Shown here: piece by piece, positions 1-55,679 of the stretch | Position numbering within the stretch: position 1 is the stretch's first letter | Layout: each line of letters begins with the position of its first letter | DNA from: a virus | Lineage: Duplodnaviria > Caudoviricetes | Strand: one strand, 5' to 3' | IMG/VR virus record: IMGVR_UViG_3300008259_003948 | Span: 531 to 64,530 of that record | DNA: 64,000 nt | The notes under the pieces: generated by a model | Told to the model about the DNA's origin: nothing | Database searches by the model: none | What the model saw: the letters and a program-made list of their open reading frames with translations, nothing else | Made by a program: the position numbers and the translations under genes

Positions 1-3000
1 CAATTCCTGGTGGTAATCTACATATGTTTTTTAACAATGGTCAGTTGTTAACATATGGTAGTGATTATACAATTACAGGAACAACTTTAGAATTTGCAAC
101 TTTATATCCCTCACCAACCCCAACAGATGTTTTAAGAATATTATTTGGATTATCGGCAATCGCAACTCAGAGTGGTTTATCAGGTATTGCTGGAAGTTCA
201 GGTATAAGTGGTGTTAGTGGTTATTCAGGTTCAGATGGTGTAAGTGGTATATCAGGATTACAAGGAACTAGTGGTATATCAGGATTACAAGGAACTAGTG
301 GTATATCAGGAATAAGTGGATATTCAGGTTCTGATGGTGCTAGTGGAATTTCGGGAATAAGTGGTGTTAGTGGTTATTCAGGATCTGATGGTGCAAGTGG
401 TATATCAGGACTGAGCGGTATAAGTGGAATGTCAGGAATTACATCAAGTGAGATTGCGCCCAATCTTGTAACAGTATCTCTTCCTGGTGGAGTTGCTGAC
501 TTTAACTCGGTAAAGGATGCGGTAGATAGTATAACCGCGGCAACGGCAACAAGTCCTTATGTTGTATATGTTCACGCAGGAACTTATTATGAAAACTCAT
601 TTTCTTTAAAATCATACATTACATTAAGAGGTGAAAGTTCTACATCAACAATTATTGAAGCGAATGATCCGAACTCTACTCTGATTTATGGGGCAGATCA
701 ATCTATGATTCAGGATGTCCAAGTTCAAGGATGTACCGGAACAGGAGTTTCGGCAATAGTATATTCTTCTTCAACAACACCACAATTAAATGCAATTTTT
801 TATGTTGAAAATGTAAGATTTGGAACAAACTATACGCATGTTAAAAACATTGGAACAGGTGGCGGTAATAGTATTATACAATGTTCAAATGTAAAATATG
901 GTGGATATCCTTTTACGGTAGGTTTCTATTGCACAAATGATGGTAGTGGTATTGGTAGGATGCAACTTCGAAATGTAACATCCACAAATGGTGGAATTAC
1001 AACAACATCCAATTTAGTTTTTGCCAAAGCAGATAAATCAGGTTGTGGTTTTATTGTAAATGGTTGTTTGTTGACCAAGGCGGTAGGAGCCGCTGCGGGA
1101 ACAGGATTTTGGGTTGAAGATGGCGCGTTTTTACGACTTACAGGGGTTAATTTCCAAAGATGGACAACAGGTATATACGCACCGCAAGTAGGGTCAGCAC
1201 CAAGTATTGATGCTATCGCATTAAACTTTGAAAACTGCACAACAGATGTCAATATAGTTCATTCAGGAGCAACAGGAAAAGTCCAAGGAACTGATACCTT
1301 TATAAAAACAATCATACCAATTGATGCGCCACTTTATGAAGTAGGACAAGATGCTAGAAGAATTATTGTTGCCAAAAAAGGTGGAGATTTTACATCAGTC
1401 AAAAGCGCTGTAGATTATATAACAGGATCTTCAGCGACTAATAGATTTGTGGTTGAAGTAGGTCCTGGTAAATTTACCGAAAATGAAATTGATTTAGTTG
1501 GTAAACCTTATGTTAGTATTGTTGGATCGAATATTCAAACTACGGAAATAGTTCCTAGTACATCTTCACAACATATTTTCAAATTAGGTATTAATAACGA
1601 AATATCTTTCTTAACTATATCGGGTGTTGGTTCAGGATATGCCGCAATGTATATCGATGACATAGGAGATTTTGCTCAAGCCCATAAAATATCAATCTAT
1701 GATAGTGACATTGGAATTTGGGTAAAATCTTCGACCCAAGATACCAAATTCTATGGTGAATACATAGACATAAATGGTGATTTCAGTTATGGTGTTCGTG
1801 TAGAGGCTACCAATTCATTCTTAGCTCTTACAAATATGGAAAACTATTACCTGTTTCCAACATATGACGATGTTATAGGAAATAGTGTTGATGGATTAGG
1901 TGGTCGATTGAATATATATACCGCAGAATTTGAAGGAGCATTATTAACAGGATCAACAGCCATACTTGTATCAGATGAAGCAGAATGTGAGGCCGGAAAT
2001 TTGGACATTCAGGAATGGAATAATGCTATAGTTGTTCCAAATGTTGGTAATGGTCCGGCAATCAGAATTGTTGGAACAATGATTCACGATTCGATTACAA
2101 ATGATTTTGAAATTTTAAATGCCACAACAACATTCAGATTCCAAGGAGTTGCAGATCACACAAAAATTTCTAATGTAAGTAATGATGTATATTGGAACTT
2201 TTTGGACGACACAGATGGTGAAAACGATATTACAAGAAAAATATCTGTAACCTTTGCCGATGGAACTCATACAGATGCTTCGACATTAATCTTCCAAGGA
2301 AGTGCAATGGGAAGTATGACAGGTGGGACAATTACATTTGTAAGTGGTTTAACCATAAGCACCGCAGCTGGATTTGGTTATCTACAAAACACCATAACCC
2401 CTGATATTATACAAAGAATTGATTGGAGTGATACACAATTGGTTCTTTCAGCAAATACTGACAATTATATATTCATCACAGATAATAGTATATTAACCGC
2501 ATCTGGTGGATTACCAAGTCCAATCAATAATATAGTATTGGGTAGAGTTGTAACAAACTCTACAACAATCGAGTTCATAGAACAAAGTGCATATGATGCG
2601 AATCACACAGGAACATTATTATCGAGTTTCAATAGAAATGGTCTTGGATCAATTTATGCTGAGGGTTCGATTGTCACTCAAAATACAACACCATTTCAAA
2701 TAGACATAACTCAGGGTAGTTACTATTTCTCAGAAAACAATTATCTACCAACAGGTGGAACAGGAGTAACATTCACCCAGTATTATTATAGTGGTTCAGG
2801 ATGGATTACATCTGCAACAACCTATGTTAATAACTATCAATATAATGCAGGACAAACCTCATTGTCAGCTCTTACATCATCGGCCTATACTAAACATACT
2901 CTTTATACGGTTGGGGATGGTATTGATGAAAAATATTTCTTAGTCTTAGGACAAAATGAATACACAACTCTTGTTGAGGCGGAGGATGCAAATTTACCAA

Positions 3001-3941
3001 CCCCACCAACATTCTTTAAAGATGCGGTAACACCAATCGCTTCCATTTATATTCAACAAGGATTTTCAGGTATTACTCAAATAGAAGACATAAGACCTAT
3101 CATTGGTTTTAAAGCTGCTGGAGTAAATGCAACAGCCGTTCACGGAAATCTTTTGGGATTAGGTGCTGATGACCATACTCAGTATCTACTTGTTGATGGG
3201 GTAAGAGAAATGAGTGGAGATTTGGGTCTTGGTGGTAATGACATTTATAATACAAACTTAATAACAACCAACTATGTTACAACCACAGGAATAACCATAT
3301 CTAATTTAACACAAGACAATGCTCAGACAAAATTTGTTGTTGTGGATAACGCTGGTGTTGCATATTATAGAACGGGTGGAGAAAGTGGTTTATCAGGTAT
3401 TAGTGGAATATCAGGATTACAAGGAACAAGTGGATTAAGTGGATTAAGTGGAATATCAGGTATTGGTGGTCTTTCAGGTATTTCAGGATTAAGTGGAATA
3501 TCAGGTATAAGTGGTGATACAGGACCAATTGGTATATCAGGTTTACAAGGTATTAGTGGTTTGGCGGGAACTTCAACATCAAACATATCGACAATTAGTT
3601 TTACGGTAGATACAGGAGGTGCGGCACCAATATCGTCAGGACTTAAATCATTTGTATATCTTCCTTATAGTGGTGAGATATTGTCTTGGACAATTCTGAC
3701 AAACACATCAGGATCAACAGAGTTAGATCTTTACAAATCGACATATGCGAATTATCCTCCTGATATATCAGATACAATCATAACAACAGATTACCCCTAT
3801 TTATCTAATATGATAAAGAATCAAAGTTCAAATCTTACAGGATGGACAACAACATTTGATGCCGATGACATAATTGGATTATATGTAAAATCTGCATCAA
3901 CAATAACAAGAATACAATTAATTTTAGAAATACAAAAATAA
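1..3941 (+). CDS. Large tail fibre/tailspike-like protein, 5'-truncated by the window: two pectin-lyase-like beta-helix regions and two G-X-S repeat blocks
   Basis: Frame is open upstream of ATG 24. Two copies of the beta-helix entry motif (GVADFNSVKDAVDSIT..VHAGTYYE; GGDFTSVKSAVDYIT..VGPGKFTE), an HGNLLGLGADDHTQY motif, and GISGLS repeats. Confidence 0.7.
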   Translation, partial: IPGGNLHMFFNNGQLLTYGSDYTITGTTLEFATLYPSPTPTDVLRILFGLSAIATQSGLSGIAGSSGISGVSGYSGSDGVSGISGLQGTSGISGLQGTSGISGISGYSGSDGASGISGISGVSGYSGSDGASGISGLSGISGMSGITSSEIAPNLVTVSLPGGVADFNSVKDAVDSITAATATSPYVVYVHAGTYYENSFSLKSYITLRGESSTSTIIEANDPNSTLIYGADQSMIQDVQVQGCTGTGVSAIVYSSSTTPQLNAIFYVENVRFGTNYTHVKNIGTGGGNSIIQCSNVKYGGYPFTVGFYCTNDGSGIGRMQLRNVTSTNGGITTTSNLVFAKADKSGCGFIVNGCLLTKAVGAAAGTGFWVEDGAFLRLTGVNFQRWTTGIYAPQVGSAPSIDAIALNFENCTTDVNIVHSGATGKVQGTDTFIKTIIPIDAPLYEVGQDARRIIVAKKGGDFTSVKSAVDYITGSSATNRFVVEVGPGKFTENEIDLVGKPYVSIVGSNIQTTEIVPSTSSQHIFKLGINNEISFLTISGVGSGYAAMYIDDIGDFAQAHKISIYDSDIGIWVKSSTQDTKFYGEYIDINGDFSYGVRVEATNSFLALTNMENYYLFPTYDDVIGNSVDGLGGRLNIYTAEFEGALLTGSTAILVSDEAECEAGNLDIQEWNNAIVVPNVGNGPAIRIVGTMIHDSITNDFEILNATTTFRFQGVADHTKISNVSNDVYWNFLDDTDGENDITRKISVTFADGTHTDASTLIFQGSAMGSMTGGTITFVSGLTISTAAGFGYLQNTITPDIIQRIDWSDTQLVLSANTDNYIFITDNSILTASGGLPSPINNIVLGRVVTNSTTIEFIEQSAYDANHTGTLLSSFNRNGLGSIYAEGSIVTQNTTPFQIDITQGSYYFSENNYLPTGGTGVTFTQYYYSGSGWITSATTYVNNYQYNAGQTSLSALTSSAYTKHTLYTVGDGIDEKYFLVLGQNEYTTLVEAEDANLPTPPTFFKDAVTPIASIYIQQGFSGITQIEDIRPIIGFKAAGVNATAVHGNLLGLGADDHTQYLLVDGVREMSGDLGLGGNDIYNTNLITTNYVTTTGITISNLTQDNAQTKFVVVDNAGVAYYRTGGESGLSGISGISGLQGTSGLSGLSGISGIGGLSGISGLSGISGISGDTGPIGISGLQGISGLAGTSTSNISTISFTVDTGGAAPISSGLKSFVYLPYSGEILSWTILTNTSGSTELDLYKSTYANYPPDISDTIITTDYPYLSNMIKNQSSNLTGWTTTFDADDIIGLYVKSASTITRIQLILEIQK
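171..440 (+). repeat. Collagen-like Gly-X-Ser triplet block, including a 27-bp tandem unit AGTGGTATATCAGGATTACAAGGAACT at 243-311
   Basis: Read directly: SGLSGIAGSSGISGVSGYSGSDG..., with Gly at every third residue. Confidence 0.9.
3384..3570 (+). repeat. Second Gly-X-Ser triplet block
   Basis: SGLSGISGISGLQGTSGLSGLSGISG... Confidence 0.9.
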
Positions 3942-6322: not shown

Positions 6323-6478
6323 ATGGCTCTTAGTGATATTCTTATGATAGAGGCAGATATTGTTGAACCAATATTGGAACTTGACCCAGGAACATTAAAT
6401 GCTCCACAGGATCAACTAACAGAACAGATGACATTAAATGAATTAACCTTAGTATTAGAAGCAAGTTATTCAAGCTAA
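6323..6478 (+). CDS. Small acidic protein (51 aa), not in the ORF track
   Basis: MALSDILMIEADIVEPILELDPGTLNAPQDQLTEQMTLNELTLVLEASYSS*. It fills the gap exactly and overlaps the next gene as TAATG. Confidence 0.65.
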   Translation: MALSDILMIEADIVEPILELDPGTLNAPQDQLTEQMTLNELTLVLEASYSS

Positions 6479-8610
6479 TGAGTATTACAAGATTGGGAAC
6501 ATATCCACAGATTAAAGGATCTCCATTTAAGATCCCTTGTCTTGTTTCGACAGATACTGACATTACTTTAACAGGTGGAACACCAAATCAAGTAGATGGT
6601 GTTAATTTATCTGTTGGTGATAGAATACTTGTTAAATCACAAAACACAACATCACAAAATGGAATATACTATGTTCAGACACTTGGATCAGGATCAAACG
6701 GAACTTGGGTTAGAAGTGTTGATTTGTCTATTAATGATGATGTATTTCAGGGTGTTACAATTTTTGTAAGCGAGGGAACATTATATGGCGGAACTTTGTT
6801 TGTAATTAACACACCAAATCCAATCGATTTGGGAACAACCTCATACGGTTTTGATGTTGCATTTTCAGGTGGAACAGGATCTAGTGGTTTATCAGGACTT
6901 GAGGGTATATCGGGTATAAGCGGACTTGAGGGGATTAGTGGAATATCAGGTATTGAAGGAATTAGTGGGTTAGAAGGTTTGAGTGGAATATCAGGTTTGG
7001 AAGGAAACTCGGGTATTAGTGGTTTAGAAGGAATAAGTGGAATATCAGGTCTACAAGGGATATCAGGAATTGGATTTTCAGCGGTAACAAATTTCTCTGA
7101 CAACAGAATATTAACCTCTGATGGAACTGCAAATGCCGCAACAGCAGAACCAAATCTTACATTCGATGGAACGACTTTAAGAATTACAGGACAAACTACA
7201 CAACAATATAGTGGACCCAACGGATTCACAATTACGGGAACTTATACAACTACTGCAAACTCTCAAGCGTTTACTTTGATAAATCCATCAATAACACAAA
7301 GGAATACCGCGTCCGAGTCGACTTTCGGAGTCAGTTTAACACCTACATTAGTTGGAACTGCAAACGCTCAAGAATTAGTTGGTTTGAATATAAGTCCAAC
7401 ATACACAACATTTGGATCAACAACAAATATCTCAAGAAGAGTAGCTTTGAAAGTTGAGGGTGCCTATCTTGGAACTGTTAATGGTACTAATATTGTTTTT
7501 GGCATTAATGCTGGTAGATACATTTCAACGGGATTTAATAATGCTTTTGTTGGTAACAACACAGGTTTAGCACTACAAAGTGGGTATTATAATACAGGAT
7601 TTGGTGATGATATTGGTAACTTTGGAGGAGCAGGTGGTGCAATAAATGTAAATATTGGTTGGAGAGCAGGACAAGGAAATTTTGGAACAAATGCAAATGT
7701 AGTTATTGGCGCTGAGGCTAATAGAGATGGTGGTGCTTTTCCTTATTCATCAGGTAATAATGTTTTCATAGGTTATAGATCAGGATTTACAAACGGTAAC
7801 AATAATGGAACTTGTGTGCATGTAGGAGCATCAACAGTAGGATTTGCTAACACAGATTCTAACGCAATTGCAATCGGATATGGAACATATGCTCAAGGAT
7901 CTAACACAGCTGTTTTCGGAAACAACTCAATAACAAGAACGCTTCTCAAAGGAGATGTGGGATTAGGATATACACCAACCAATTTGGCAGTAACTTTGGA
8001 TGCTAGGCTTGATATTGTTGGTTCTTCATCAGTCACAGGTAACGCATTGAAAGTTGCCAATTCAACACCAACAACACTTTTGGTGGTTCAAAATGATGGA
8101 AATGTTGGTATAGGACCAACAAGCCCAACTTCAAAATTGCATGTATCGGGAACAACAAATATTGCATCTTTTGTTGGTTCGGGTGGAACATTATATTACG
8201 ATGGAACAACATTAAATTTTTCAGGATCATCAAATGCAAATTTCCAAGACAATCTTTTGGTGAGACCCGAAATGAAAGATTATTCAGAAACATATTCCTC
8301 ACCTTCAATATCATCAAGTGCTTTGACACTTAATTTAGAAAATGGAAATGTTTTCAATGTGTCATTGGATTCTGATGTTACAACTTTTACAATTAGTAAT
8401 CCTCCCGCTAGTGGAAAAACGGGATCATTTACACTAGTATTAACAGCTGATGGAACACCAAGAACAATAACTTGGGGTGGTAATATCAAATGGGGGTCTG
8501 TTGGGTCTCCTACATTAACAAGTGATAGTGGTAGATCTGATATATTTTCATTTATGTCATTAGATGGTGGGTCTAATTGGTATGCATTTATCGCAGGACA
8601 AGCATTTTAA
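6478..8610 (+). CDS. Tail fibre protein with G-X-S/E repeats and an adhesin-like Gly/Asn repeat region
   Basis: N-terminal VDGVNLSVGDRILVKSQNTTSQNGIY fibre motif; NxxxG repeats; GNVGIGPTSPTSKLHV motif; C-terminal LNLENGNVF..W..PTLT..DIFSF domain. Confidence 0.75.
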   Translation: MSITRLGTYPQIKGSPFKIPCLVSTDTDITLTGGTPNQVDGVNLSVGDRILVKSQNTTSQNGIYYVQTLGSGSNGTWVRSVDLSINDDVFQGVTIFVSEGTLYGGTLFVINTPNPIDLGTTSYGFDVAFSGGTGSSGLSGLEGISGISGLEGISGISGIEGISGLEGLSGISGLEGNSGISGLEGISGISGLQGISGIGFSAVTNFSDNRILTSDGTANAATAEPNLTFDGTTLRITGQTTQQYSGPNGFTITGTYTTTANSQAFTLINPSITQRNTASESTFGVSLTPTLVGTANAQELVGLNISPTYTTFGSTTNISRRVALKVEGAYLGTVNGTNIVFGINAGRYISTGFNNAFVGNNTGLALQSGYYNTGFGDDIGNFGGAGGAINVNIGWRAGQGNFGTNANVVIGAEANRDGGAFPYSSGNNVFIGYRSGFTNGNNNGTCVHVGASTVGFANTDSNAIAIGYGTYAQGSNTAVFGNNSITRTLLKGDVGLGYTPTNLAVTLDARLDIVGSSSVTGNALKVANSTPTTLLVVQNDGNVGIGPTSPTSKLHVSGTTNIASFVGSGGTLYYDGTTLNFSGSSNANFQDNLLVRPEMKDYSETYSSPSISSSALTLNLENGNVFNVSLDSDVTTFTISNPPASGKTGSFTLVLTADGTPRTITWGGNIKWGSVGSPTLTSDSGRSDIFSFMSLDGGSNWYAFIAGQAF
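6883..7074 (+). repeat. Gly-X-Ser/Glu triplet block
   Basis: SGLSGLEGISGISGLEGISG... Confidence 0.9.
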
Positions 8611-10412: not shown

Positions 10413-11042
10413 ATGGATATAATGGAAATTGTTAGATTGATCGTAACTTCCATCACCTCAATCATTGCCGCACTCATAACGGCTGGATTTTTTAAAAGTT
10501 GGTGGGAAAAACAATCGGTCTTCAAATCAAGAAAAAAGCTCGTTGGCCAAATAGAATCAGATACGCTAGTTTATCAAACAATCAAACAACTAAAACACGA
10601 TTATTATTGTGATCGTGTGTATATTATACAATTCCATAACGGAGACAATTTTTATACAGAATCTCCAATTCAAAAAGCATCAGCAACATTTGAAGTATGT
10701 TCAACAGGACTTGAAAGGGTTTCGGATAAGTTTCAAAATGTTTTGGTGAGTCATTATTCTTGGTATATAAATGAAGCCATCAAAAAACAAATGTATTTTT
10801 ATAATATAGAAGATGTTGATGATGCAACGACAAAATCACTTTTACATTACAGAGGTGCTCAGTCTCACTGCGGTGTTCCACTTTATGATGATAGAAAACA
10901 TTTGGTGGGTTTATTCTGTGTGGATTGGGTGTTTACAGAAGTTCCTGACAATTTCTTAACAAACAATGAATTTACAGATGAGTATAAAGAAAACTTTTTT
11001 ATTCAGGCGAATTCTTTGGTCAAATTAATTAAAACAAATTAA
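10413..11042 (+). CDS. Putative holin (single N-terminal TM helix plus GAF-like soluble domain, T4 T-like architecture)
   Basis: Hydrophobic IVTSITSIIAALITAGFF, then RVYIIQFHNG..GVPLYD..LVGLFCVDW. Confidence 0.5.
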   Translation: MDIMEIVRLIVTSITSIIAALITAGFFKSWWEKQSVFKSRKKLVGQIESDTLVYQTIKQLKHDYYCDRVYIIQFHNGDNFYTESPIQKASATFEVCSTGLERVSDKFQNVLVSHYSWYINEAIKKQMYFYNIEDVDDATTKSLLHYRGAQSHCGVPLYDDRKHLVGLFCVDWVFTEVPDNFLTNNEFTDEYKENFFIQANSLVKLIKTN

Positions 11043-11845
11043 TTTAAGAATCGGTATCTAAGCACTTGTAACTCACCGTTACTACTTTCAATACTTGATG
11101 AGAAGTGAGAAAGATCAACATCTTCTAAATCATCAACTTTATTTATATAAGTAGATCCTCTAAATCGTTGATCGATATCAAAATCAGAATCACTTATAGT
11201 TTCTGGTTCTTTTTCATCAATAAATATTCTAAAAGTATTTGGTGAGTCAAGTATGTAGCTTTCATCAATTTCTTCATTTGAGTCTCTGTGTTTGTAAACA
11301 TAATCAAATACCGAAGTATTATAACTCACATATTCAGAAATTACATATTTTGTCAAATCATTAAATTGTATAGATCCCGTTCCATCACAATACTGGCATT
11401 CATCACTCCCAGCACCATCACAATGACTACAAGTTTCACGACCTTCACCATCACAATTGTTACACGATTCTTCGTCTTCACTATCGGGATCTATTCCTGA
11501 TCCGTCACATTCATCGCAGTTATAATCGCCACTTCCATTACAATAATCACAAGTTATTGTTCCGTCACCACCACATTCATCACATCCTTTTTCTATTTCG
11601 TCTTCGGAAAAATATACAGAAGAGAATACAAATAAAAATGAATTTATGGTTTGAAGTTCTTTATTTGGATCTTTACCATCATTTATTGCTTTGGTTAGAA
11701 AAACAATTTTAACGAAATCAAGAGCTGGAATTTTTTTAATAAAAGTTCTAACCAAATTATTTGTCATATAGTCTCCGTAAATCTTTTGTAATGACTTTGA
11801 CTTTGTATTTACGGACAAACTTTTTGCAATCCCAACTAAATTCAT
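11039..11845 (-). CDS. Protein with DnaJ-type zinc-finger repeats, no J domain
   Basis: Six CxxCxGxG motifs (CDECGGDG, CDYCNGSG, CDECDGSG, CNNCDGEG, CSHCDGAG, CQYCDGTG); no HPD motif. Confidence 0.75.
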   Translation of the reverse strand: MNLVGIAKSLSVNTKSKSLQKIYGDYMTNNLVRTFIKKIPALDFVKIVFLTKAINDGKDPNKELQTINSFLFVFSSVYFSEDEIEKGCDECGGDGTITCDYCNGSGDYNCDECDGSGIDPDSEDEESCNNCDGEGRETCSHCDGAGSDECQYCDGTGSIQFNDLTKYVISEYVSYNTSVFDYVYKHRDSNEEIDESYILDSPNTFRIFIDEKEPETISDSDFDIDQRFRGSTYINKVDDLEDVDLSHFSSSIESSNGELQVLRYRFLN

Positions 11846-11867
11846 ATCGATAAATATATTATAAGTT

Positions 11868-11899
11868 AAAAAACCCACCTATAAAAGATGGGTTTTTTT
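11868..11899 (-). terminator. Intrinsic terminator directly after tmRNA
   Basis: Minus-strand AAACCCAUCU-UUUAU-AGGUGGGUUU followed by a U tract. Confidence 0.8.
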
Positions 11900-11900
11900 G

Positions 11901-12294
11901 TGGTGGAGACGCGGGGTTCCGCCCCCCGGTCTTGCTCATTTCGAATAAAGAAGACTACACGCTTAGGTCAATATTGGTTCTCAATATTCCGAAATATTTC
12001 GTTTTAATTTTTCCATCAAAACGAATAAAAGTGGAGGATTCACTTCTACTGGGGTAGAACCCTGAACGGAACCCACGATACTACGACTTCTGTTGCTAGG
12101 TTAGTGTCTGCCGACCCCTTAGTAAAGTAACTATTAAGCTACTGTTACACCTTCAGTGCGGACGAGTCCGAGAGTCTGAAGTTTTGCGAAAGTTTCGCCA
12201 TTTAAAGTTTTGTCTCCGTGTATTAGAGTGATAGGAAACCTCTCACTGCGTGCCTTCTATACTTGATAACGCCAATCGATACTATGTCGTCCCC
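11901..12294 (-). ncRNA. ssrA: tmRNA (one-piece, 394 nt); predicted tag (A)GETFAKLQTLGLVRTEGVTVA encoded at 12199-12134
   Basis: 5' GGGGACG pairs with 3' CGUCUCC-ACCA and carries the G3:U alanine determinant. T-arm CGGGG-GGCGGAA-CCCCG. UAAAU precedes the resume codon GGC; tandem UAA UAG stops. Confidence 0.93.
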
Positions 12295-12376
12295 GTATGA
12301 ATGTAAATATAATAAAACTAATCTAATCTATCAATTTTTTATATTAATAATATATTTATTAAGAAAACCAAAAAAT

Positions 12377-12937
12377 ATGAAAAGAGTTGTAAAATTGACA
12401 GAACAAGATTTATATAGAATCGTAAAAAGAGTTATCAAAGAACAAGGAACCACAACACAACCTCCAGCTGGTGCTCAAACAACAACACAGTCTCAAGCTG
12501 GCGCTCAAACAAGTGCTTTTATTGATGGTGTAACTAGAAACGCTAATAATGATGAACTTTTAAATAAATACATAGGTTTGGGAGGTATTACCACAGGTAG
12601 GGAAGCGATAGATAAGTTATTATCAGATGGGGATCCCCGAGCAAAAAATTATTTAATTAATCAGGCTGATATAGAAAGAAAAGAACAAAAAACTGGTTTA
12701 GCATCAAAATTCAAAGGAATGATAACTGCGTTCTTACAAAAAACTTGGGAAAATAAAGTAGATTTGACAACAAAGAACGAATCAATATTCCCCGCTCTTT
12801 TAAAAGATACAGATTACTTTGAAACTTATAAAACGCTTACCACCAAATTCGATGGAAAAGAAATTTTAACAGCATCCGATTTAAAAAATATCTATAATAA
12901 ATTAAAAGAATATCAAAGAACATTTAGATTCTCATAA
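12377..12937 (+). CDS. Hypothetical protein with N-terminal MKRVVKLTEQDLYRIVKRVIKE leader (putative head-packaged protein)
   Basis: Start moved to 12377 because the track start overlaps the tmRNA; TATTTAT at 12353. Confidence 0.7.
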   Translation: MKRVVKLTEQDLYRIVKRVIKEQGTTTQPPAGAQTTTQSQAGAQTSAFIDGVTRNANNDELLNKYIGLGGITTGREAIDKLLSDGDPRAKNYLINQADIERKEQKTGLASKFKGMITAFLQKTWENKVDLTTKNESIFPALLKDTDYFETYKTLTTKFDGKEILTASDLKNIYNKLKEYQRTFRFS

Positions 12938-14638: not shown

Positions 14639-14670
14639 TTTGTATAATTAAAACTTTTGTTATATCTTTG
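14639..14670 (+). promoter_or_regulatory. Bacteroidota primary-sigma promoter (TTTG-N20-TATCTTTG)
   Basis: Consensus match ending 4 nt before ATG 14675. Confidence 0.7.
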
Positions 14671-14674
14671 TGGA

Positions 14675-15502
14675 ATGGAAAGAAATTATCAACTACTCAA
14701 AGATGTCCTGTCGGTTCCAACCAAAACTTACAAGGAAGAAAAAATGGTTCAATTTATTTGTGATTGGTTAACCCAAAACAATATACCATTTTATAAGGAT
14801 CAATTCAATAATGTATATGCAACCAAATCAGAAACTGAAGTTGGTGATGGATTCTTTTTTCCTTGTGTGGTTTCTCATACTGATACTGTTCACAATCTTG
14901 ACACAATAAATATTGCTGAGGAATATCTTCCAAACGCACAAAAGGAGGTTAAATTGTCATTAAAAGCTTATAATGATAACGGAGACCCAACAGGTATTGG
15001 TGGAGATGATAAATGTGGTGTTTATGGTTGTTTGGAACTTTTGAAAGAACTTCCACATTTAAAAGCGGCTTTCTTTGTGTCAGAAGAGACAGGTTGTCAC
15101 GGATCCAAAAAAGCTGATCCCGAATTTTTCAAAAATGTTGGATACGCAATTCAATTTGATGCCCCTGAGAATTGGATGGTTACAGAATATTGTATGGGTG
15201 TTTCCCTTTTTGACGCCAAAAGTGATTTCTATGATAAGTGTGAAAATATATTGGTTGAAAACTTTAACGAAGATCTAAGGTTTATGAAACATCCCTATAC
15301 TGATGTTTACGCTTTAAAAGCCAAATTCGATTTTTCTTGTATCAATATATCAATCGGATATTATCAATATCATACAAGAAACGAATATGTGGTTGTTGAA
15401 GATGTTTACAATGGAATCGAAACAGGAAAAAAGATGATTGAATCTTTGGGATATAAAAAGTATGAGTATAAATTAAAAGAGGACAAATACTTTTTACTTT
15501 AA
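14675..15502 (+). CDS. M20/M28-family zinc peptidase
   Basis: SHTDTV, GGDDKCG, SEETGCHGS and QFD motifs plus a C-terminal His (YHT). Confidence 0.8.
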   Translation: MERNYQLLKDVLSVPTKTYKEEKMVQFICDWLTQNNIPFYKDQFNNVYATKSETEVGDGFFFPCVVSHTDTVHNLDTINIAEEYLPNAQKEVKLSLKAYNDNGDPTGIGGDDKCGVYGCLELLKELPHLKAAFFVSEETGCHGSKKADPEFFKNVGYAIQFDAPENWMVTEYCMGVSLFDAKSDFYDKCENILVENFNEDLRFMKHPYTDVYALKAKFDFSCINISIGYYQYHTRNEYVVVEDVYNGIETGKKMIESLGYKKYEYKLKEDKYFLL

Positions 15503-16127: not shown

Positions 16128-16150
16128 AAAGGGGGAACTATTCCCCCTTT
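16128..16150 (-). terminator. Hairpin overlapping the clp stop codon
   Basis: AAAGGGGGAA-CTA-TTCCCCCTTT inverted repeat. Confidence 0.6.
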
Positions 16151-17810
16151 TTCTTTTTCGATTTTTTCTCTTTCTGTTTTTCCAAGACCAATTTGTCCTC
16201 ATCACATTTTATGTGGTAACTTTCTCCGACAATCAAATTTGATTTAAGGATCTCTTCAGATATGAAATCTTCTACCTTATCTTGAATTGCCCTTTTAAGT
16301 GGTCTTGCTCCGTATGTGTCATCAATACCAGCTTTTGATATTAATTCCACCAAAGACTCATCATATGAAATATTGTATTTGAGTTCTTTGATCCTATTGA
16401 ACAATTTCTCAAGTTCGATCTTTACAATTTCTTTCACATTACTGTCACTGAGAGTATTAAAGATAATTGTATCATCAATACGATTTAAGAATTCGGGGGC
16501 AAAAAACTTTTTAAGTTCTTTATTCAATATATCCTTTTTCATTTCTTCTTGAATATATTCATTACTTGATGATGAGAATCCCATACCTGTTCCGAAGTCT
16601 TGAATCTTTTTAACACCAAGATTTGATGTCATAATAATCAAACAATTCTTAAAGTTAATTTTTCTTCCCAAACTATCAGTAATATGTCCTTCGTCTAAGA
16701 TTTGAAGTAAAAGTGAGAAAATATCTTTGTGCGCCTTTTCAATTTCATCAAATAAAACCAAAGAGTAAGGTTTATTTTTAACTTGTTCAGTTAATTGACC
16801 ACCTTCTTCATAACCAACATAACCTGGTGAAGATCCTATAAGTCTTGTCATACTAATTTTCTCTTGGTATTCAGACATATCAACTCTAATCAAAGCCTCT
16901 TCACTACCAAAGATTTCTTTAGCCAATTGTTTTGCCAAATGGGTTTTACCGACACCAGTACTACCCAAGAATATGAAACCAAATCAATCGGAACATCTTT
17001 TCTATTTAATAATAGTTCCTTCTCAAACTTCTTTTTTTCGTCTTCGAGTTTTGCCAAGATTTTCTTTTCTTTGTCTCGTAATTCAGCCGCTTGTTCAAAA
17101 TTTTGTCTTTTAACAACTTCTAACTTTTCTTTTTTTACATCAGAGGCTTGAGTTTTAAGATCCTCAATAATATCAGGTATTTTAATCTCAACTTGACATC
17201 TTGCGCCAACTTCATCCATAATATCAAAAGCTTTGTCAGGAAACTCCCTATCGGTTATATACCTGTCGGCCAATTCAACACAAGATATCAATACTTCTTC
17301 ACTATAATTTACTTTGTGATACTCTTCGTATTTAATTTTTGATTGTTTTAAAATTTCTAAGGTTTCGGACTTTGATGAACCATCAATTACAACCTTTTGA
17401 AACCTTCTTTCTACTTGTAACTCTTCAATGATAACTTTCATCCTTTCTTCGAACTGACCCCTATATTTGGTTCCGGCAACAATTGAAGTCATATCCAAAG
17501 ACAGGATCCTTTTGTCCAAAAGATTTCTTGGGCAATCTCCTTCAAATATCTTCATTGCCAAACCCTCAACAATACTTGTTTTACCACTACCGGCGCCACC
17601 TAAGATTATTGGGTTATTCTTTTTTCTTCGAGATAAAATTTGGGCAATTCTGATAATTTCTTTTTCCCTACCAATTACAGGGTCTATTTTTCCTTGTTCT
17701 GCGAGTTTGATCAGATCCCTTGAAAAATTATCCAACACGGGTGTTGGGGAATCTGTGGTTTTTTGTTTGTTTTCTTTAGGTGAGTCGTTATCAAAATGTT
17801 CGGTCATCAT
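16138..17810 (-). pseudogene. clpC: ClpC/ClpB-like AAA+ unfoldase lacking the N-domain, with two apparent internal deletions (one causes a frameshift); pseudogene or assembly error
   Basis: D1: DPVIGRE, RRKKNNP, GxxGxGKT, AGTKYRGQFEER, but no Walker B (EELQV joins ERRFQ directly). UVR-type NFEQAAELRD. D2: GSTGVGKT, DMSEY, GYVGYEEGG, LFDEIEKAH, GARPLKR, in a different frame. Confidence 0.8.
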
Positions 17811-43472: not shown

Positions 43473-44275
43473 ACCATTTGTGGTTCGTATTTTATGGATC
43501 TATCGTCCTTATAATAATATTCTTTCTTCGCTGTTTGGATCCAAAATTTAACTTCATCTTCACTCATAATAGGTGTTCCATTTTTGTAATTCCAAAAAAT
43601 AGATCCTTCTCTAAGGTTAATGTGTTTATATCCAATTTTTGGAATTGTCATAATTCTAGCAGAATTAAATGTAAATCTTAACAACAATTCATAAACAAAA
43701 GTAAGTTTCATAGTAGGTTTGAATCCTCCAAAATCCTCAATCAAAGATTTTTTAAAAACCATACCAGATGTTTGGAAATTTTGGTATTGATGTAAAGTGT
43801 CGTTTGTTAAATAACCAACTTCTTGTGAGAATGACATTGCAAAAGTTGCTTCGTTAGTAAATCCGGCAAAAACACCCTTATTATCCACATCAACAACGAT
43901 TGGTAAAAATGCATCCACATCAGGAAAAAATTCAGAATACTTTTTTACATTTTTAAACCAAATGTTTGAATACTCGTCATCAAATTCAAAAATGGATACC
44001 CACTCAGACTTTGATTTAGAAATACCATAATTAACTTGTTTTGCAAAGTTTGGTTCCTCTGCCCATTCGTATTTAGATACGGTTAAATCGCCAAAATCAT
44101 AAGATGATAGTTTTGTAACAAGTTGTTCTTCACTTGTGTGAACAATAATCAATTCATTAATATTTGTTTGTTGTTGTTTTAACGAAAGGATTGCCTTTTC
44201 AAAATAATCATCAAAGTCTCTAACAACAGCAGACCTGATAGGTAAAATTATAGATACATTAAAGTTATTTTCCAT
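43469..44275 (-). CDS. Glycosyltransferase, GT2/GT-A fold
   Basis: VSIILP start, NYGI..SKSEWV.IFEFDD. Confidence 0.75.
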   Translation of the reverse strand: MENNFNVSIILPIRSAVVRDFDDYFEKAILSLKQQQTNINELIIVHTSEEQLVTKLSSYDFGDLTVSKYEWAEEPNFAKQVNYGISKSKSEWVSIFEFDDEYSNIWFKNVKKYSEFFPDVDAFLPIVVDVDNKGVFAGFTNEATFAMSFSQEVGYLTNDTLHQYQNFQTSGMVFKKSLIEDFGGFKPTMKLTFVYELLLRFTFNSARIMTIPKIGYKHINLREGSIFWNYKNGTPIMSEDEVKFWIQTAKKEYYYKDDRSIKYEPQMV

Positions 44276-45339
44276 TATTGTTCAATTGTTTCAAGTTTAT
44301 TTAATTGTTGTTCAAAAGAATTCAATCTTTCCATCATATATCCTGAGAATAAGAATACCACATTAGATTCAAATCCCTCAAAGTCACTATACTTAGCGGC
44401 TGTCTCATACCCTGTTTCGTAAATCTTTGGGTGAACATTATCTTCTAACCAATTTTGTACAAAATCCGCAATTACATCAACAAATGAGTTGTTATCTGTA
44501 ATCCAAATACCATTATCTTGTGTTAACCATTCAGGAGAGAGATAAGGAGCTCTACCTATTACTGGTACGCCAACTTTCATAGATTCCAAAGGATATGTTC
44601 CAAATCCGCTTGTAGGATCAATCCAAACCGATAAGAATGCGTCTTTCAATGAGTTAGCAAAATCTCTTTCACCTAAACCTCTCATATCTCTGAAGGTAAT
44701 CCATCTGTATTGAGGATACTTTAGATAGAAAGTCTTGATTATATTCAAAGAATCTCTTTGGTCTCTTGAGTGAATACACACAATTGGTTTTGGAGGTAAT
44801 TCTTGTTTTTCAAAAACATTTGATATTGTTGGAGTAATAATATCAAAGGATGTGTTTCTCATAATTTGAGAAATATAATTTTTCTGAGCTTCAGATGTTG
44901 TAATACATTTCAAAAATGAGTATTGAGACCAAGATTGTCCAGGTTGTAAGGTCTCTAACATATGATCATATGCTTGACACAATACAATCTTACCACAAGG
45001 TAAATTTTTAACCTGATCCATAATGAATCCATAGATCTCAGGAATAACCAAAAGGTCTTCAGGTGATACAGGTAATTGTTGACCCTCAATTTTTGCGTGA
45101 GGTAATTTGGACATATAGTCTCCTTCGAGCCACGAATTAACAGGTGTATAGTCATCTTTTTCATGCAACATAATTGCGTTATAACCAGCATTTTTAAGCG
45201 CCATCGCCATCTGATAAATTATTCTTATCGAAGCTTTGGCATTACCTTTTGTGTCTTGAACAAAAAAGTAAATTCTCGCAGTTTTATCCTTGAGATTTTT
45301 GATTGAAACTTCAAGTTTTTTGATGTTTTCTTGATCCAT
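44275..45339 (-). CDS. Glycosyltransferase, GT4/GT-B-like
   Basis: SGFGTYPLESMKVGVPVIG acceptor/donor motif. Confidence 0.7.
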   Translation of the reverse strand: MDQENIKKLEVSIKNLKDKTARIYFFVQDTKGNAKASIRIIYQMAMALKNAGYNAIMLHEKDDYTPVNSWLEGDYMSKLPHAKIEGQQLPVSPEDLLVIPEIYGFIMDQVKNLPCGKIVLCQAYDHMLETLQPGQSWSQYSFLKCITTSEAQKNYISQIMRNTSFDIITPTISNVFEKQELPPKPIVCIHSRDQRDSLNIIKTFYLKYPQYRWITFRDMRGLGERDFANSLKDAFLSVWIDPTSGFGTYPLESMKVGVPVIGRAPYLSPEWLTQDNGIWITDNNSFVDVIADFVQNWLEDNVHPKIYETGYETAAKYSDFEGFESNVVFLFSGYMMERLNSFEQQLNKLETIEQ

Positions 45340-45342
45340 AGT

Positions 45343-45600
45343 TTAAAATTTATTTATTAAGTTTTTATGTAATAATGTGTTAAATGCTATTTTGAATGGT
45401 ATTGAAACCTGAGCTTTACTACCCAATGTCTCATCAACTTCGTCTCTTTCTGTCAAAAGAATTTCCATTAACATTTTTACCATTTCATACTTTGTTACGC
45501 TGATGGTATTCTCTTCCGCTCCTGAATACGAGATAACCTCAATGTATGCCTCTACTTGATCTAAATCTAAGTAATAATTTTCTCCTAATACTTTTATCAT
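45343..45600 (-). CDS. Hypothetical protein
   Basis: Coupled ORF. Confidence 0.6.
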   Translation of the reverse strand: MIKVLGENYYLDLDQVEAYIEVISYSGAEENTISVTKYEMVKMLMEILLTERDEVDETLGSKAQVSIPFKIAFNTLLHKNLINKF

Positions 45601-46220
45601 TTTTTAATTTGTTTAAATATATCTGTTAATTCACTCAAAGATCTGATCGTATATTTCGAATCTGTTGTTTTATTATATTCAGTTTCGAATTTTATGACAA
45701 TTTTTTCAGTCGGATAGTTTAATAATAATTCAGGATTTGATGTAAGTAAAATATCAATATCATCCCAAATTGAGTCTTTTGTTGTTTTTGAGTAAAATCT
45801 GATCTTTTCAATAAGACATCCAAACTTAGACAAGAAAAATAAAGTTGCTGGTTTACCTTTACCAACCTCTTCAGAAATTATCATTATCTCATTCTCAACT
45901 CTTTGATCTAAATAAAAGTCATTTAACAAGTTAAATGTATTGTTTTCAGAAGATCCGGCATGTCCAAAAATTTGCATTGGAAATTCCTCATACATAAATT
46001 TTAGATATTCCTCCTCATCCTTAAATTTAAAAAAATCTGTCAGAGTTAATGAAGTAATAGGTGTTGTCATCTCATATACAAAGTCATCAGTTTCACCTGT
46101 GACTATCATATTATTCTCACCAATCTCTAAATTATTTTCTATTAGATAGGATTCATAAACTCTTGTGAATTTACCAATAGTATCTCTTAGGACACCATTA
46201 ACATCAATTGCAATTCTCAT
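45597..46220 (-). CDS. HAD-superfamily 5'(3')-deoxyribonucleotidase-like protein
   Basis: MRIAIDVNGVLRD, a HAD motif I variant. Confidence 0.55.
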   Translation of the reverse strand: MRIAIDVNGVLRDTIGKFTRVYESYLIENNLEIGENNMIVTGETDDFVYEMTTPITSLTLTDFFKFKDEEEYLKFMYEEFPMQIFGHAGSSENNTFNLLNDFYLDQRVENEIMIISEEVGKGKPATLFFLSKFGCLIEKIRFYSKTTKDSIWDDIDILLTSNPELLLNYPTEKIVIKFETEYNKTTDSKYTIRSLSELTDIFKQIKK

Positions 46221-46311
46221 AGTCAGATAATAATAAAAAAAATAAACTTGTAAACCCACATTATATGAGTGATATTTATATATGTTAATAAACTATTTAT
46301 TTTAAAAAATT

Positions 46312-46782
46312 ATGTTACTTTCAGAAAATTTATCTTTAGCAGAGGTAGTTAAGTCAAATACAGCCAAAAGACTTGGTATTAATAATAACCCAACACCCGA
46401 ACATTTGGAAAATCTTAAATTGGTTGCAAAACACATATTCCAACCAATAAGAGAACACTTCAAAAAACCAATCAATGTTTCTTCAGGTTATAGATCAAAA
46501 GCATTAAATGATGCAACACCAGGATCTTCTCCCACATCTCAACATTGTACGGGAGAAGCTTTGGATTTGGATCAAGATGATATGAATACAGGAGTTACCA
46601 ATAAAATGGTGTTTGAATTTATCAAGAACAATTTAAATTTTGATCAATTAATCTACGAATTTGGTAATGATCAAAACCCTGATTGGGTGCATGTTTCGTA
46701 TGAATCAACAGGAAGACAAAGAAAACAAATTTTAAGAGCGGTAAAAGTTAATGGTAAGACAACCTACAAACCTTATGTTTAA
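46312..46782 (+). CDS. Peptidase M15A, probable endolysin
   Basis: SSGYRS, SQHCTGEALD, WVHVS; two TATTTAT motifs upstream. Confidence 0.85.
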   Translation: MLLSENLSLAEVVKSNTAKRLGINNNPTPEHLENLKLVAKHIFQPIREHFKKPINVSSGYRSKALNDATPGSSPTSQHCTGEALDLDQDDMNTGVTNKMVFEFIKNNLNFDQLIYEFGNDQNPDWVHVSYESTGRQRKQILRAVKVNGKTTYKPYV

Positions 46783-47519
46783 TGGTTGTCTTCGTATCTT
46801 TTTAGTATCTTACTAATAAGAGGATTCCTCACAACATCTCCGTCTTTAAATTCGTGAACTCCGATATCATCTAAGTTTTGAAACTTCTTGATAGCATCCC
46901 ATAGACCTGTTTGTGTCTTGTCTTTGTGTCTGTCAAATTGTTCCAAATCACCAGAAATGAAGAACTTGGAATTGAATCCAATTCTTGTTAATAAAAGTTT
47001 CATTTGGTTAGGAGTTGAGTTTTGAGCTTCTTCAAAAATCAATATGGAATTATCAATGTTCATTCCTCTCATATATGCTAGTGCAAAAACTTCAATTATA
47101 TCAGATTGGACTAATTTGTCTTTTGCCTCTTTTCCAATTATTTTGGTTAAAAGATAGTATGATGGAAAAATATAAGGATCTAATTTTTCTTCTACATTAC
47201 CAGGAAGAGAACCTAGTTTTTCTTCAGCTTCAACTGCGGGTCTTACAATGATGATCTTTTCATATGTGTTATTAGTATCTGTTAATAAATCAACTGCCGC
47301 TTTCATTGCTATATAACTTTTACCAACCCCTGCAGGACCTGAACAAATTGTTATTTGATGGTTACATAATTTTTCGTAGTATTCTTTTTGACTTTCAGTT
47401 AAAAACTTATTTCTTGTTTTTTTTTGAACAATATTGTTAATTAAGTCTTTTTTGGTAAAAGACCTTGGTTCTGATTCTTCATTTGTTTTACGAGGTTTTG
47501 TGTTTCTTCTTGTCATCAA
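46779..47519 (-). CDS. phoH: PhoH-family ATPase
   Basis: GPAGVGKS, RPAVE, LG.LPG, YMRG, EEAQN, GDxxQ.D, VRNPL. Confidence 0.92.
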   Translation of the reverse strand: MMTRRNTKPRKTNEESEPRSFTKKDLINNIVQKKTRNKFLTESQKEYYEKLCNHQITICSGPAGVGKSYIAMKAAVDLLTDTNNTYEKIIIVRPAVEAEEKLGSLPGNVEEKLDPYIFPSYYLLTKIIGKEAKDKLVQSDIIEVFALAYMRGMNIDNSILIFEEAQNSTPNQMKLLLTRIGFNSKFFISGDLEQFDRHKDKTQTGLWDAIKKFQNLDDIGVHEFKDGDVVRNPLISKILKRYEDNH

Positions 47520-48496
47520 TTTTTAGTTTTGAAATGGTTTAACCAATATTCTATCATTTCATCTAACATATCTTCGAAAGTGTATTTAGGTTTCCACCCC
47601 GTGAGAGTTCTTAGTTTAGATGAATCGCCTTTCAAATTATTTAATTCTTCCGGTCTGAGATATTTTTTATCTTGTTTAACATATGTTTCCCAATCCAAAG
47701 ATAGTCTACCAAAAACATATGTACATAAATCTTTTACTGATTTAGAAATGCCCGTGGAGCAAACAAAATCGTTCGGTTTTTCTTGTTGTAGAATTAACCA
47801 CATTGCCTCAACATAATCTTTGGCGTGTCCCCAATCTCTGGTGGCGTCCAAATTACCTAATTTTAGTTCGTTAGATAATCCTAATTTTATTTTTACGGCT
47901 TCTTTCGCAACTTTATTTGTTACGAAGTTTGTACCTCTCCTTGGTGATTCGTGATTAAAAAGTATACCATTTGATATAAACATACCATAAGAGTTTTTAT
48001 AATTTCTAGATATGTTATAACTAAAAACTTTAGCGCATCCATAAGGAGATACTGGATTCATTGGAGTTGTTTCTCTTTGATATCCGTCATCGTCTATTGA
48101 ATTTCCAAACATCTCGGAGGAAGAGGCTTGATATATTTTGATTTTTGTGTCATTTAACCTAACCGCTTCCAAAAGATTTAATGTGCCTAATCCTGTTACA
48201 TTACAAGTGTATATAGGTTGATCAAAAGAAATTCTAACATGTGATTGCGCGGCTAAATTATAAATTTCAGAAGGTTTTACTTTTTGAATTACACCATATA
48301 ATGAGGATAAATCTGTCATATCTGCATAATGAAGATTTATTTCATCATAAACATTATCTAATCTTGTTGTTTGATTTTCAGATATTGAATTTCTCTTTAA
48401 GGTTCCGTGAACTTCATATCCTTTATTCAATAAAAACTCTGTCAGGTAAGATCCATCTTGTCCGTTTATACCTGTTATTAAAACTTTATTTTTCAT
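47516..48496 (-). CDS. gmd: GDP-mannose 4,6-dehydratase
   Basis: ITGINGQDGSYL, LAAQSHV, QASSSEMFG, SPYGCAK, FNHESPRRG, RDWGHA. Confidence 0.95.
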   Translation of the reverse strand: MKNKVLITGINGQDGSYLTEFLLNKGYEVHGTLKRNSISENQTTRLDNVYDEINLHYADMTDLSSLYGVIQKVKPSEIYNLAAQSHVRISFDQPIYTCNVTGLGTLNLLEAVRLNDTKIKIYQASSSEMFGNSIDDDGYQRETTPMNPVSPYGCAKVFSYNISRNYKNSYGMFISNGILFNHESPRRGTNFVTNKVAKEAVKIKLGLSNELKLGNLDATRDWGHAKDYVEAMWLILQQEKPNDFVCSTGISKSVKDLCTYVFGRLSLDWETYVKQDKKYLRPEELNNLKGDSSKLRTLTGWKPKYTFEDMLDEMIEYWLNHFKTKN

Positions 48497-49805: not shown

Positions 49806-49816
49806 TTTTAATATAT

Positions 49817-50722: not shown

Positions 50723-50726
50723 AATT

Positions 50727-51398: not shown

Positions 51399-51402
51399 AA
51401 TT

Positions 51403-52110: not shown

Positions 52111-52111
52111 A

Positions 52112-52762: not shown

Positions 52763-52765
52763 TTT

Positions 52766-55479: not shown

Positions 55480-55519
55480 GGCGTATAATAATTAAAAAAA
55501 ATTGATTTATATATAATTT

Positions 55520-55672
55520 TCAAAATTTATGTTTCGATACTAAAATAGTTTGACCGATTGATCCTATATTTCCTGATGTCATAATTACTTCTGAATCACC
55601 AAACAATTTATTGCCCATAATATAATCATTCAAAAGTTCATTTTGGGTATGTTGATGCGGAACAATAGGCAT
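55520..55672 (-). CDS. Short ORF (50 aa) or gene remnant
   Basis: MPIVPHQHTQNELLNDYIMGNKLFGDSEVIMTSGNIGSIGQTILVSKHKF*; fills an operon gap. Confidence 0.35.
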   Translation of the reverse strand: MPIVPHQHTQNELLNDYIMGNKLFGDSEVIMTSGNIGSIGQTILVSKHKF

Positions 55673-55679
55673 ATTAATC

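Follow-up and report, generated by a model that had tools for sequence, protein, structure and literature searches.

A one-piece tmRNA gene in a stretch of phage DNA, with a long tag frame and an alternative tRNA elbow found in a minority of its relatives

Introduction

The genes of transfer-messenger RNA (tmRNA) occur in three forms and their commonest tag length is 10 residues, according to the tmRNA database paper (PMC11915505), whose available text also mentions a form of tmRNA without a coding sequence (CDS-less) in mycobacteriophage DS6A. Among phages, tmRNAs have been reported in huge phages, together with SmpB (PMC7162821), and in the OM43 phage Melnitz, whose tmRNA is of the two-piece alphaproteobacterial type (PMC9004378). 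The phage tmRNAs of these reports were detected with ARAGORN, and the available parts of the three texts describe neither a long conserved tag, nor an elbow dimorphism, nor an exchange of domains (PMC7162821, PMC9004378, PMC11915505). A full-text literature search for tmRNA together with GGCRGUA returned no paper; such signatures may well be found in the primary literature on two-piece tmRNAs. In this work we describe a tmRNA gene contained in a stretch of 64,000 nucleotides of viral DNA, referred to as the window (positions 531 to 64,530 of the IMG/VR record IMGVR_UViG_3300008259_003948), along with the family to which this gene belongs. We consider it likely that this family comprises one-piece tmRNAs of T4-like jumbo phages of approximately 300 kb from fresh water, and that the copy in the window is functional.

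An earlier note on the window, made from the sequence alone, had proposed a one-piece phage tmRNA combining alphaproteobacterial-type signatures (the T-loop GGCGGAA and the heptamer AACAGAA) with a long tag ending VTVA, in an apparent Bacteroidota phage. The gene shares with the standard one-piece tmRNA (RF00023) the gene order, an acceptor stem with G3.U70, a T-stem of 5 bp, a long helix 2, a resume codon placed after a putative pseudoknot, a tag frame that stops within a hairpin and an encoded CCA. It differs from this standard in the T-loop (GGCGGAA), in the A-G of the D-loop and in a tag of 21 residues ending VA instead of LAA, and the phage tmRNAs differ from it by an alpha-type loop 3 in the pseudoknot after the tag. 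The points in common with the two-piece alphaproteobacterial tmRNA (RF01849) are a GGCRGNA T-loop and a pseudoknot after the tag with the loop ACCURGSAACAGAA; compared with GGCRGUA, the window T-loop shares GGCRG and the final A, and three relatives (L357, L394, and L456) have exactly GGCRGTA. In contrast to RF01849, the phage gene is unpermuted, contains further structured RNA after the pseudoknot and has no ANDN...(L/V/Q)AA tag. In addition, the D-loop of RF01849, AAYAG(G)AUCGA, is near-identical to that of the phage variant but keeps GG, and the alpha-type elbow, that is, the combination of D-loop and T-loop, is present in only 6 of the 99 members of the phage family.

Results

An intact one-piece tmRNA gene

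The Rfam cmscan search of the 64-kb window gave a single family above its gathering score, RF00023, on the minus strand (62.4 bits, cut-off 47, E 5.7e-22), and the alignment extended over positions 1-374 of the 374 in the model, colinear from end to end. The permuted model RF04321 produced only partial matches to the gene (24 and 12.5 bits, below the cut-off of 47), and ARAGORN called neither a tRNA nor a tmRNA in the 64-kb window. The RF00023 match confirmed a one-piece, unpermuted tmRNA at the place proposed in the earlier note. The elements of the gene needed at this point are the following.

11901..12294, minus strand: one-piece tmRNA gene of 394 nt with encoded CCA (RF00023, 62.4 bits; 38 of 41 family consensus pairs)
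11912..11928, minus strand: T-arm, with stem CGGGG/CCCCG and 7-nt loop GGCGGAA (11917-11923)
12282..12286, minus strand: D-loop variant CAUAG (A-G, as against G-G in 93 of 99 relatives)
12306..12334, minus strand: promoter-like TTGATA-17-TATATT (10 of 12 matches), ending 12 nt before the 5' end of the tmRNA
11868..11897, minus strand: terminator-like hairpin and U run right after the CCA, read from the sequence and from an incidental alignment

The acceptor stem (12294-12288 with 11911-11905) was paired at 7 of 7 positions, the third pair being G.U, and was followed by an encoded 3' ACCA at 11904-11901. The T-stem CGGGG/CCCCG (11928-11924 and 11916-11912) had 5 bp and the T-loop 7 nt, GGCGGAA at 11923-11917, exactly as read in the earlier note; stem and loop length are retained in a tmRNA that has neither a canonical UUCRA-type T-loop nor a GG D-loop. 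The consensus structure obtained with RNAalifold from 59 diverse family members contained 41 pairs, which covered the acceptor stem, the long helix 2, the T-stem and the hairpin after the tag; compensatory changes were seen at 32 of the pairs. The third acceptor pair was G.U in 59 of the 59 relatives; G3.U70 is the identity element for alanine. The window tmRNA formed 38 of the 41 pairs (family mean 38.3, range 31-41), so that this copy is structurally intact, like its relatives in every helix. The Rfam E-value, the compensatory pairs and the number of pairs formed indicated, taken together, that the match is more than chance. With regard to the flanking signals, promoter-like sites were no more numerous in the scan than expected from shuffled sequence, and the terminator scan made no call at the hairpin 11868..11897.

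Contigs from RNA libraries (four metatranscriptome runs of two studies) matched the window copy with 0-2 differences and jointly covered 11937-12290, which is compatible with a stable RNA being expressed. No RNA-library contig was found on either flank (11701-11936 and 12291-12500), from which no conclusion was drawn. Two RNA-library contigs of run X19 matched only the pseudoknot block (12074-12119 of the window) and then diverged from it; their most likely source is the tmRNA of related phages present in that sample. One RNA-library contig of run X20 presented an odd joint at which the sequence goes back.

A family of phage tmRNAs

No match to the tmRNA was obtained by blastn against 50,697 phage records. 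BLAST against 30 related records gave matches in seven, and Rfam confirmed full tmRNAs in five of these (83-130 bits) and a truncated one in a sixth. Conservation within the family was highest in a block of 35 nt containing AACAGAA, and at least 120 IMG/VR stretches matched a degenerate pattern derived from it. A hidden Markov model (HMM) of the family then identified a tmRNA in 127 of the 127 loci searched (87 plus 40), and after dropping duplicates and truncated copies the family set consisted of 99 unique full-length tmRNAs, the window copy included. The distinct, unpermuted phage lineage proposed earlier was in this way borne out. Most of this set was gathered via the AACAGAA block, on which the initial BLAST matches rested as well; the only set independent of the tmRNA sequence comprises seven loci obtained by searching with the peptidase gene next to the tmRNA.

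ARAGORN called 41 of the 99 family tmRNAs and missed 52 of the 93 members with canonical elbow and 6 of the 6 with variant elbow; its silence on the window consequently says little. A scan of viral DNA with a 14-mer T-arm pattern was unspecific and was dropped. The scan for GGCGGAA N9 TCCACCA, in which 117 loci were examined, yielded one family member (L271) and one permuted viral tmRNA; the latter, on the viral contig L303 (5015-5424), is a two-piece tmRNA with the exact T-loop of the window, GGCGGAA, and the tag VNDNDVVEALAA. As side observations, the tmRNA 3' end at L339:2178-2539 (minus strand) had no recognisable T-arm, and the letters found at the fixed offset of the T-loop were GTCGGAG in L377 and GTCAGAG in L436.

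Alternative elbow

The first full-length relatives aligned had a T-loop TTCGAnn in five cases out of five, and in the whole family the GGCRGNA T-loop appeared in 6 of the 99 members: GGCGGAA in the window, GGCAGTA in L357 and L394, GGCGGCA in L400 and L406, and GGCGGTA in L456. The GGCRG T-loop is thus not conserved among the related phage tmRNAs, an outcome that the earlier note had itself listed as counting against its reading. L271 is a seventh member with the variant loop and lies outside the 99. The state of the T-loop went together with that of the D-loop, where GG was absent and AYAG found instead in 6 of the 6 GGCRG-loop members, GG being present in 93 of the 93 others. Two further sequences are common to the six variants, GAUUGGC following the D-loop and CAAGACC preceding the T-stem.

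The two parts of the molecule pointed to different relatives. For the tRNA-like domain (first 40 plus last 50 nt), the nearest relatives of the six variants were each other, with identities of 0.63-0.96, whereas the nearest central domains belonged to canonical members (L357-L321, 0.96; L456-L389, 0.81; and the window with L441, L365, and L318, around 0.60). The clearest pair was canonical L321 and variant L394: the flanks were 90-97% identical and the central tmRNA 93-100%, in contrast with only 70% over the first 40 nt of the gene and 65-72% over the last 80 nt. In the central-domain tree the seven variants need 6 changes (5-7 with shuffled labels) and a single clade was rejected (approximately unbiased p-value, p-AU, 5e-84); in the tree of the tRNA-like domain with the loop letters removed, 3 changes were enough (5-7 with shuffled labels) and a single clade was not rejected (p 0.20). 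As the variant group was defined with the data already in view, these tree p-values are indicative only. The simplest reading of the alignments would be a cassette, made up of the tRNA-like domain and the base of helix 2, that is passed from one phage tmRNA gene to another, probably by recombination.

The elbow might also have been produced by point mutations selected in parallel in the separate sublineages, rather than by exchange of a cassette. This would explain why the gene diverges at its two ends around 300 nt that are 93-100% identical, a result that a single recombination tract cannot yield, and convergence is possible given that the elbow arose or persisted in three unrelated groups (see below). 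Nevertheless, the variants group together even without the loop letters, they have the extra letters GAUUGGC and CAAGACC in common outside the loops, and about 12 and about 25 differences are packed in the two ends as compared to a background divergence of around 5%. We therefore hold parallel mutation to be unlikely, although deserving of attention, and retain the movement of a cassette as the preferred explanation.

The same elbow was looked for in bacteria. A set of 120 bacterial stretches sharing the T-arm pattern G-GGCRGNA-C N8 TCCACCA was examined; 75 of them lay in permuted tmRNAs called by ARAGORN, with T-loops GGCGGTA (44) and GGCAGTA (31), and a further 13 were RF01849 matches missed by ARAGORN. 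The alphaproteobacterial D-loop consensus AAYAGGAUCGAC matched the phage variant at 11 of 12 positions. In addition, five one-piece bacterial tmRNAs with a GGCAGUA T-loop and an AUAG or UAAG D-loop were found (RF00023 67-96 bits; ARAGORN 0 of 5):

L515:469-847, L556:7290-7672, L559:7444-7837, and L570:2631-3031: one-piece GGCAGUA-loop tmRNAs, in metagenome-assembled genomes of Candidatus Saccharibacteria
L466:5795-6193: one-piece GGCAGUA-loop tmRNA of an unclassified bacterium

These tmRNAs differ from the phage family by having no AACAGAA block, and the family HMM matched only their 3' end, at 18 bits or less. In L515 and L559, the two whose frames were read, the tags are long and end AVA (by eye). 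The signatures called alphaproteobacterial in the earlier note are thus real, with regard to both the T-loop and AACAGAA (see below), but GGCRG is not exclusive to permuted tmRNAs. Being normal in the tmRNAs of Alphaproteobacteria and Saccharibacteria, the odd elbow is a recurrent alternative and not a private lesion.

This bears on whether the window tmRNA is simply decaying, having mutated off UUCGA while the surrounding proteostasis module is being lost. Such decay would be in keeping with the Rfam score of the window, the lowest among those tested, with its being missed by ARAGORN, and with the state of the neighbouring Clp ATPase gene, which has two internal losses and a frameshift. Conversely, the same D-loop and T-loop state recurs in 6 of 99 members plus L271 with 5-bp T-stems intact, the pairs formed in the window are at the family mean, its acceptor stem and tag frame are intact, ARAGORN misses 52 of 93 canonical members as well, the elbow is the ordinary one in the two bacterial groups, and contigs from RNA libraries match the window copy. 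All these factors taken together make decay extremely unlikely.

Pseudoknot after the tag

The heptamer AACAGAA was found at the place indicated in the earlier note (12094-12088), downstream of the tag frame, within the following elements.

12084..12118, minus strand: pseudoknot block, with S1 GGGU (12114-12117) paired with ACCU (12098-12101) and S2 AGAC (12106-12109) paired with GUCG (12084-12087)
12088-12097, minus strand: pseudoknot loop 3, AGCAACAGAA, which includes AACAGAA (12094-12088)

In the predicted fold AACAGAA is part of loop 3 (AGSAACAGAA) of an H-type pseudoknot situated just after the tag, and stem S2 displayed compensatory changes in 3 of its 4 pairs in the phage family. The conservation of the heptamer in related phage tmRNAs, as anticipated in the earlier note, was confirmed in the seven loci found through the peptidase gene, six of which have AACAGAA and the seventh AACAGGA. 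The alphaproteobacterial tmRNAs presented the same layout just after the tag, namely GGGGUUCG, a covarying stem, ACCUGGCAACAGAA (ACCURGCAACAGAA) and the other strand of the stem. Of the 75 permuted tmRNAs that ARAGORN called, 74 contained AACAGAA, as did 8 of the 13 recognised by Rfam only; among the five lacking it, four are cut by the end of the locus. In Bacteroidota tmRNAs (n = 51) AACAGRA occurred five times, at scattered positions and with no fixed place. The family HMM reached the alphaproteobacterial tmRNAs via the pseudoknot block (best 18 bits, E 4e-6) and those of Bacteroidota via the generic 3' end only.

One could suppose from this that the phage gene is of alphaproteobacterial origin, or the host an alphaproteobacterium, and that the alpha-type features were simply inherited: phages and Alphaproteobacteria have the loop-3 motif ACCURGSAACAGAA in common, the variant D-loop agrees with the alphaproteobacterial consensus at 11 of 12 positions, and it is through the block that the HMM finds the alphaproteobacterial tmRNAs. 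However, the phage gene is unpermuted, the canonical elbow is present in 93 of the 99 members, and the first residue of the tags is G (86), D (11), or A (2), which resembles the Bacteroidota sample and differs from the ANDN start of alphaproteobacterial tags. The phage SmpB also argues against it. The SmpB of G001, a complete relative of 296 kb in which this gene lies 7.7 kb from the tmRNA (146 bits, equivalog cut-off 119), was nearer to Bacteroidota (best of 101 genomes, 132 bits, 51% identity) than to Alphaproteobacteria (best of 61 genomes, 103 bits, 46% identity); the best values against one cyanobacterium, one Pseudomonas, and one Saccharibacteria genome were 96, 76, and 69 bits, respectively. 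An alphaproteobacterial origin or host thus seems very unlikely.

Tag reading frame

The tag frame of the window has the following position.

12131..12199, minus strand: resume codon GGC (12197-12199), tag frame of 21 codons GETFAKLQTLGLVRTEGVTVA, and stops TAA TAG (12131-12136)

The Rfam alignment placed the resume codon at the same point, 12199-12197, and U and A were found at positions -5 and -4, as in the rule known for these two positions before the resume codon. ARAGORN called the same long frame in L318, the closest relative (GETFAKLQTIGLIRTADVTVA), and the aligned frame was open for 20-24 codons in 99 of the 99 members, in agreement with the tag of 21 residues ending VTVA that had been read before. 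Most tags had 21 residues (75), the remainder having 22 (11), 20 (7), 23 (3), or 24 (3); the last two residues were VA in 76 and AA in 16, and the stop codon was TAA in 93. Resume codons were GGC (75), GGA (11), GAC (11), and GCA (2), which encode the first residues counted above. Among the 62 distinct tags of 21 codons, positions 1 (G), 11 (G), 12 (L), 18 (V), 20 (V), and 21 (A) were nearly fixed. Nucleotide diversity over the 99 tag frames was 0.39, 0.29, and 0.53 for codon positions 1, 2, and 3, respectively, and this order (third > first > second) is the pattern expected under coding constraint. In 13 members ARAGORN started at an internal in-frame alanine codon, giving tags of 8 residues that also end VA; conservation of the first ten residues favours the long frame over this internal start. 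By contrast, 49 of the 51 tags in the sample of Bacteroidota tmRNAs had 8-10 residues and ended LAA or MAA; 18 tags of this sample start with G and 11 with D.

Partner genes and fate of the tagged proteins

In addition to G001, SmpB was found in the complete relative G222. When co-variation between SmpB and elbow type was looked for, no SmpB was found on the five other fragments with variant elbow, and it was found on 1 of 17 larger records. A ClpP-like protease was detected in G001, only one of the four records searched for ClpP. A two-ring Hsp100 ATPase (ClpA/B/C-type) without N-domain lay 3-5 kb from the tmRNA in 4 of the 4 records tested, and its D2 ring bears an IGF-type loop. The copy in the window is broken:

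16138..17810, minus strand: broken gene of a ClpA/B/C-type two-ring AAA+ ATPase, as two overlapping open reading frames (ORFs), 16890-17810 and 16138-16968

With respect to the intact protein of 680 aa in G003, about 60 aa including the D1 Walker B were missing, and residues 349-400 were missing as well, with a change of frame. Inserts resembling inteins were noticed by eye at the ATPase P-loops of two relatives, G001 and G004 (L330:1141-3393, minus strand; L332, minus-strand ORF of 421 aa). Also by eye, the insert of G001 is located in D1 and ends SHN before CGKT, and that of G004 is located in D2, ends SHN before T and is adjoined by an endonuclease-like ORF.

In line with the suggestion of the earlier note, a tag ending VA might not lead to ordinary degradation, its products being stabilised, weakly degraded, or routed only to a phage protease. 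The difference between phage tags (VA in 76 of 99) and the sampled Bacteroidota tags (LAA or MAA in 49 of 51) points in that direction, as do tags twice the usual length with a conserved internal core and the presence in relatives of their own ClpP and of a Clp ATPase with an IGF-type loop. On the other hand, tags ending VA also appear, by eye, in the cellular one-piece tmRNAs of Saccharibacteria, the Clp ATPase gene of the window itself is broken, ClpP was found only in G001 among the four records searched and SmpB in two of three complete relatives. Moreover, in the available text of a study in Salmonella, degradation was fastest for the LVA-ending ssrA variant among three compared, and proceeded partly without ClpXP (PMC11003136), and the VA end is for this reason no argument against degradation. 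A changed fate of the tagged proteins consequently seems rather improbable.

Phage context and neighbouring genes

The source record has 64.5 kb (the window being 64,000 of its 64,530 bases) and was estimated by CheckV to be 22% complete, which corresponds to a genome of about 290 kb. The tmRNA lies among structural genes of the phage, and the proteins encoded in the window include a T4-type major capsid protein, portal, terminase, and collagen-repeat tail fibres. Capsid relatives were confirmed in 596 of at least 597 candidate IMG/VR stretches, and the 80 kept were 73-83% identical. In the capsid tblastn no cultured phage exceeded around 45% identity, so that no host was indicated; the nearest were a Microcystis phage, an uncultured 484-kb phage, and Flavobacterium phages. 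The tmRNA stretch was present at half or more of the sampled words in 16 DNA runs, labelled lake water, freshwater, sediment, and 'fungus' metagenome, and any part of it in 20 runs of 13 studies. The tags starting with G or D and the similarity of the phage SmpB both lean toward Bacteroidota, a hint and not an assignment of host: the Bacteroidota phage of the earlier note is to this extent weakly supported. Other genes of the window were the following.

11039..11878, minus strand: ORF with a DnaJ-type CXXCXGXG zinc-finger motif (35.8 bits, cut-off 32.7), just downstream of the tmRNA
14657..15502, plus strand: M20-like peptidase gene, a syntenic neighbour of the tmRNA in relatives
24-3941 and 6478-8610, plus strand: collagen-repeat tail-fibre genes
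44275-58379, minus strand: block of sugar-nucleotide and glycosyltransferase genes, including GDP-mannose 4,6-dehydratase (47516-48508)

Among 14 loci tested, the DnaJ-type zinc-finger ORF was found beside the tmRNA in L424 only.

Discussion

The full-length Rfam match, the covarying structure and the tag frame open in every member are the basis on which we regard the window gene as a probably working member of a phage tmRNA family. Several observations weigh against this reading or parts of it. The Rfam score of the window was the lowest of the family members scored (62 bits vs. 83-130), and the RNA-library contigs carry no information on strand, ends or level and may derive from DNA, which can be present in RNA libraries. 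Stem S1 of the pseudoknot is 100% paired but near-invariant in the phage set, being compatible with the structure though unproven there. The pN/pS ratio was 0.67 in the tag frame vs. 0.61 and 0.97 in the two shifted frames, that is, no better than in one of these, and this test shows no selection on the peptide. The replacement of both gene ends around an unchanged middle calls for two tracts of exchange and sits uneasily with simple recombination. As regards the partner genes, the complete relative G221 has no SmpB (two of the three complete relatives have it), none was found in the record of the window or in the five other variant-elbow records, which are fragments 13-39% complete, and the broken Clp ATPase gene of the window would fit a decaying module.

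According to the mechanism that we propose from these features, the phage tmRNA would be charged with alanine, as its invariant G3.U70 suggests, and would enter stalled ribosomes with SmpB, either that of the host or, in some relatives, the phage's own. A tag of 22 residues, alanine plus the 21 encoded ones (GETFAKLQTLGLVRTEGVTVA), would then be added, and its conserved core (G11-L12, V18, V20, A21) and non-polar C-terminus may mark the product for an AAA+ protease, candidates being ClpXP or Lon of the host, or the ClpA/B/C-type ATPase and ClpP of the relatives; the core might recruit Lon, the phage ATPase or an adaptor. The odd T-loop represents one half of an alternative tRNA elbow, formed by the D-loop AYAG and the T-loop GGCRGNA, which seems to travel within the phage family as a cassette of the tRNA-like domain, probably by recombination. 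A more far-reaching proposal would join both parts: two interchangeable tRNA-like cassettes would be exchanged between near-identical genomes and kept polymorphic by a host factor that reads the elbow (for instance a nuclease acting in defence, an enzyme that modifies the T-loop, or SmpB compatibility), and the long tag would be a phage-private degron for the N-domain-less Clp ATPase and the ClpP of the phage, the whole forming a partly orthogonal viral system of trans-translation and proteolysis. This joint proposal is speculative and, in our opinion, quite unlikely to hold in full.

Phage tmRNAs are known but have been little studied, and the family described here is abundant, with at least 120 IMG/VR stretches carrying the pseudoknot block. 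More than half of its members are missed by ARAGORN, the usual detection tool, so that published censuses undercount them. Interest for specialists lies chiefly in the elbow cassette and in the tag. The occurrence of the same D-loop and T-loop alternative in three unrelated groups constitutes a natural experiment on the tmRNA elbow, and near-identical phage genes with either elbow allow a direct comparison of the effect of the elbow on SmpB, EF-Tu, alanyl-tRNA synthetase, and modification enzymes. The 21-residue tag with its conserved core is, in turn, a candidate degron for the study of proteolysis directed by viruses.

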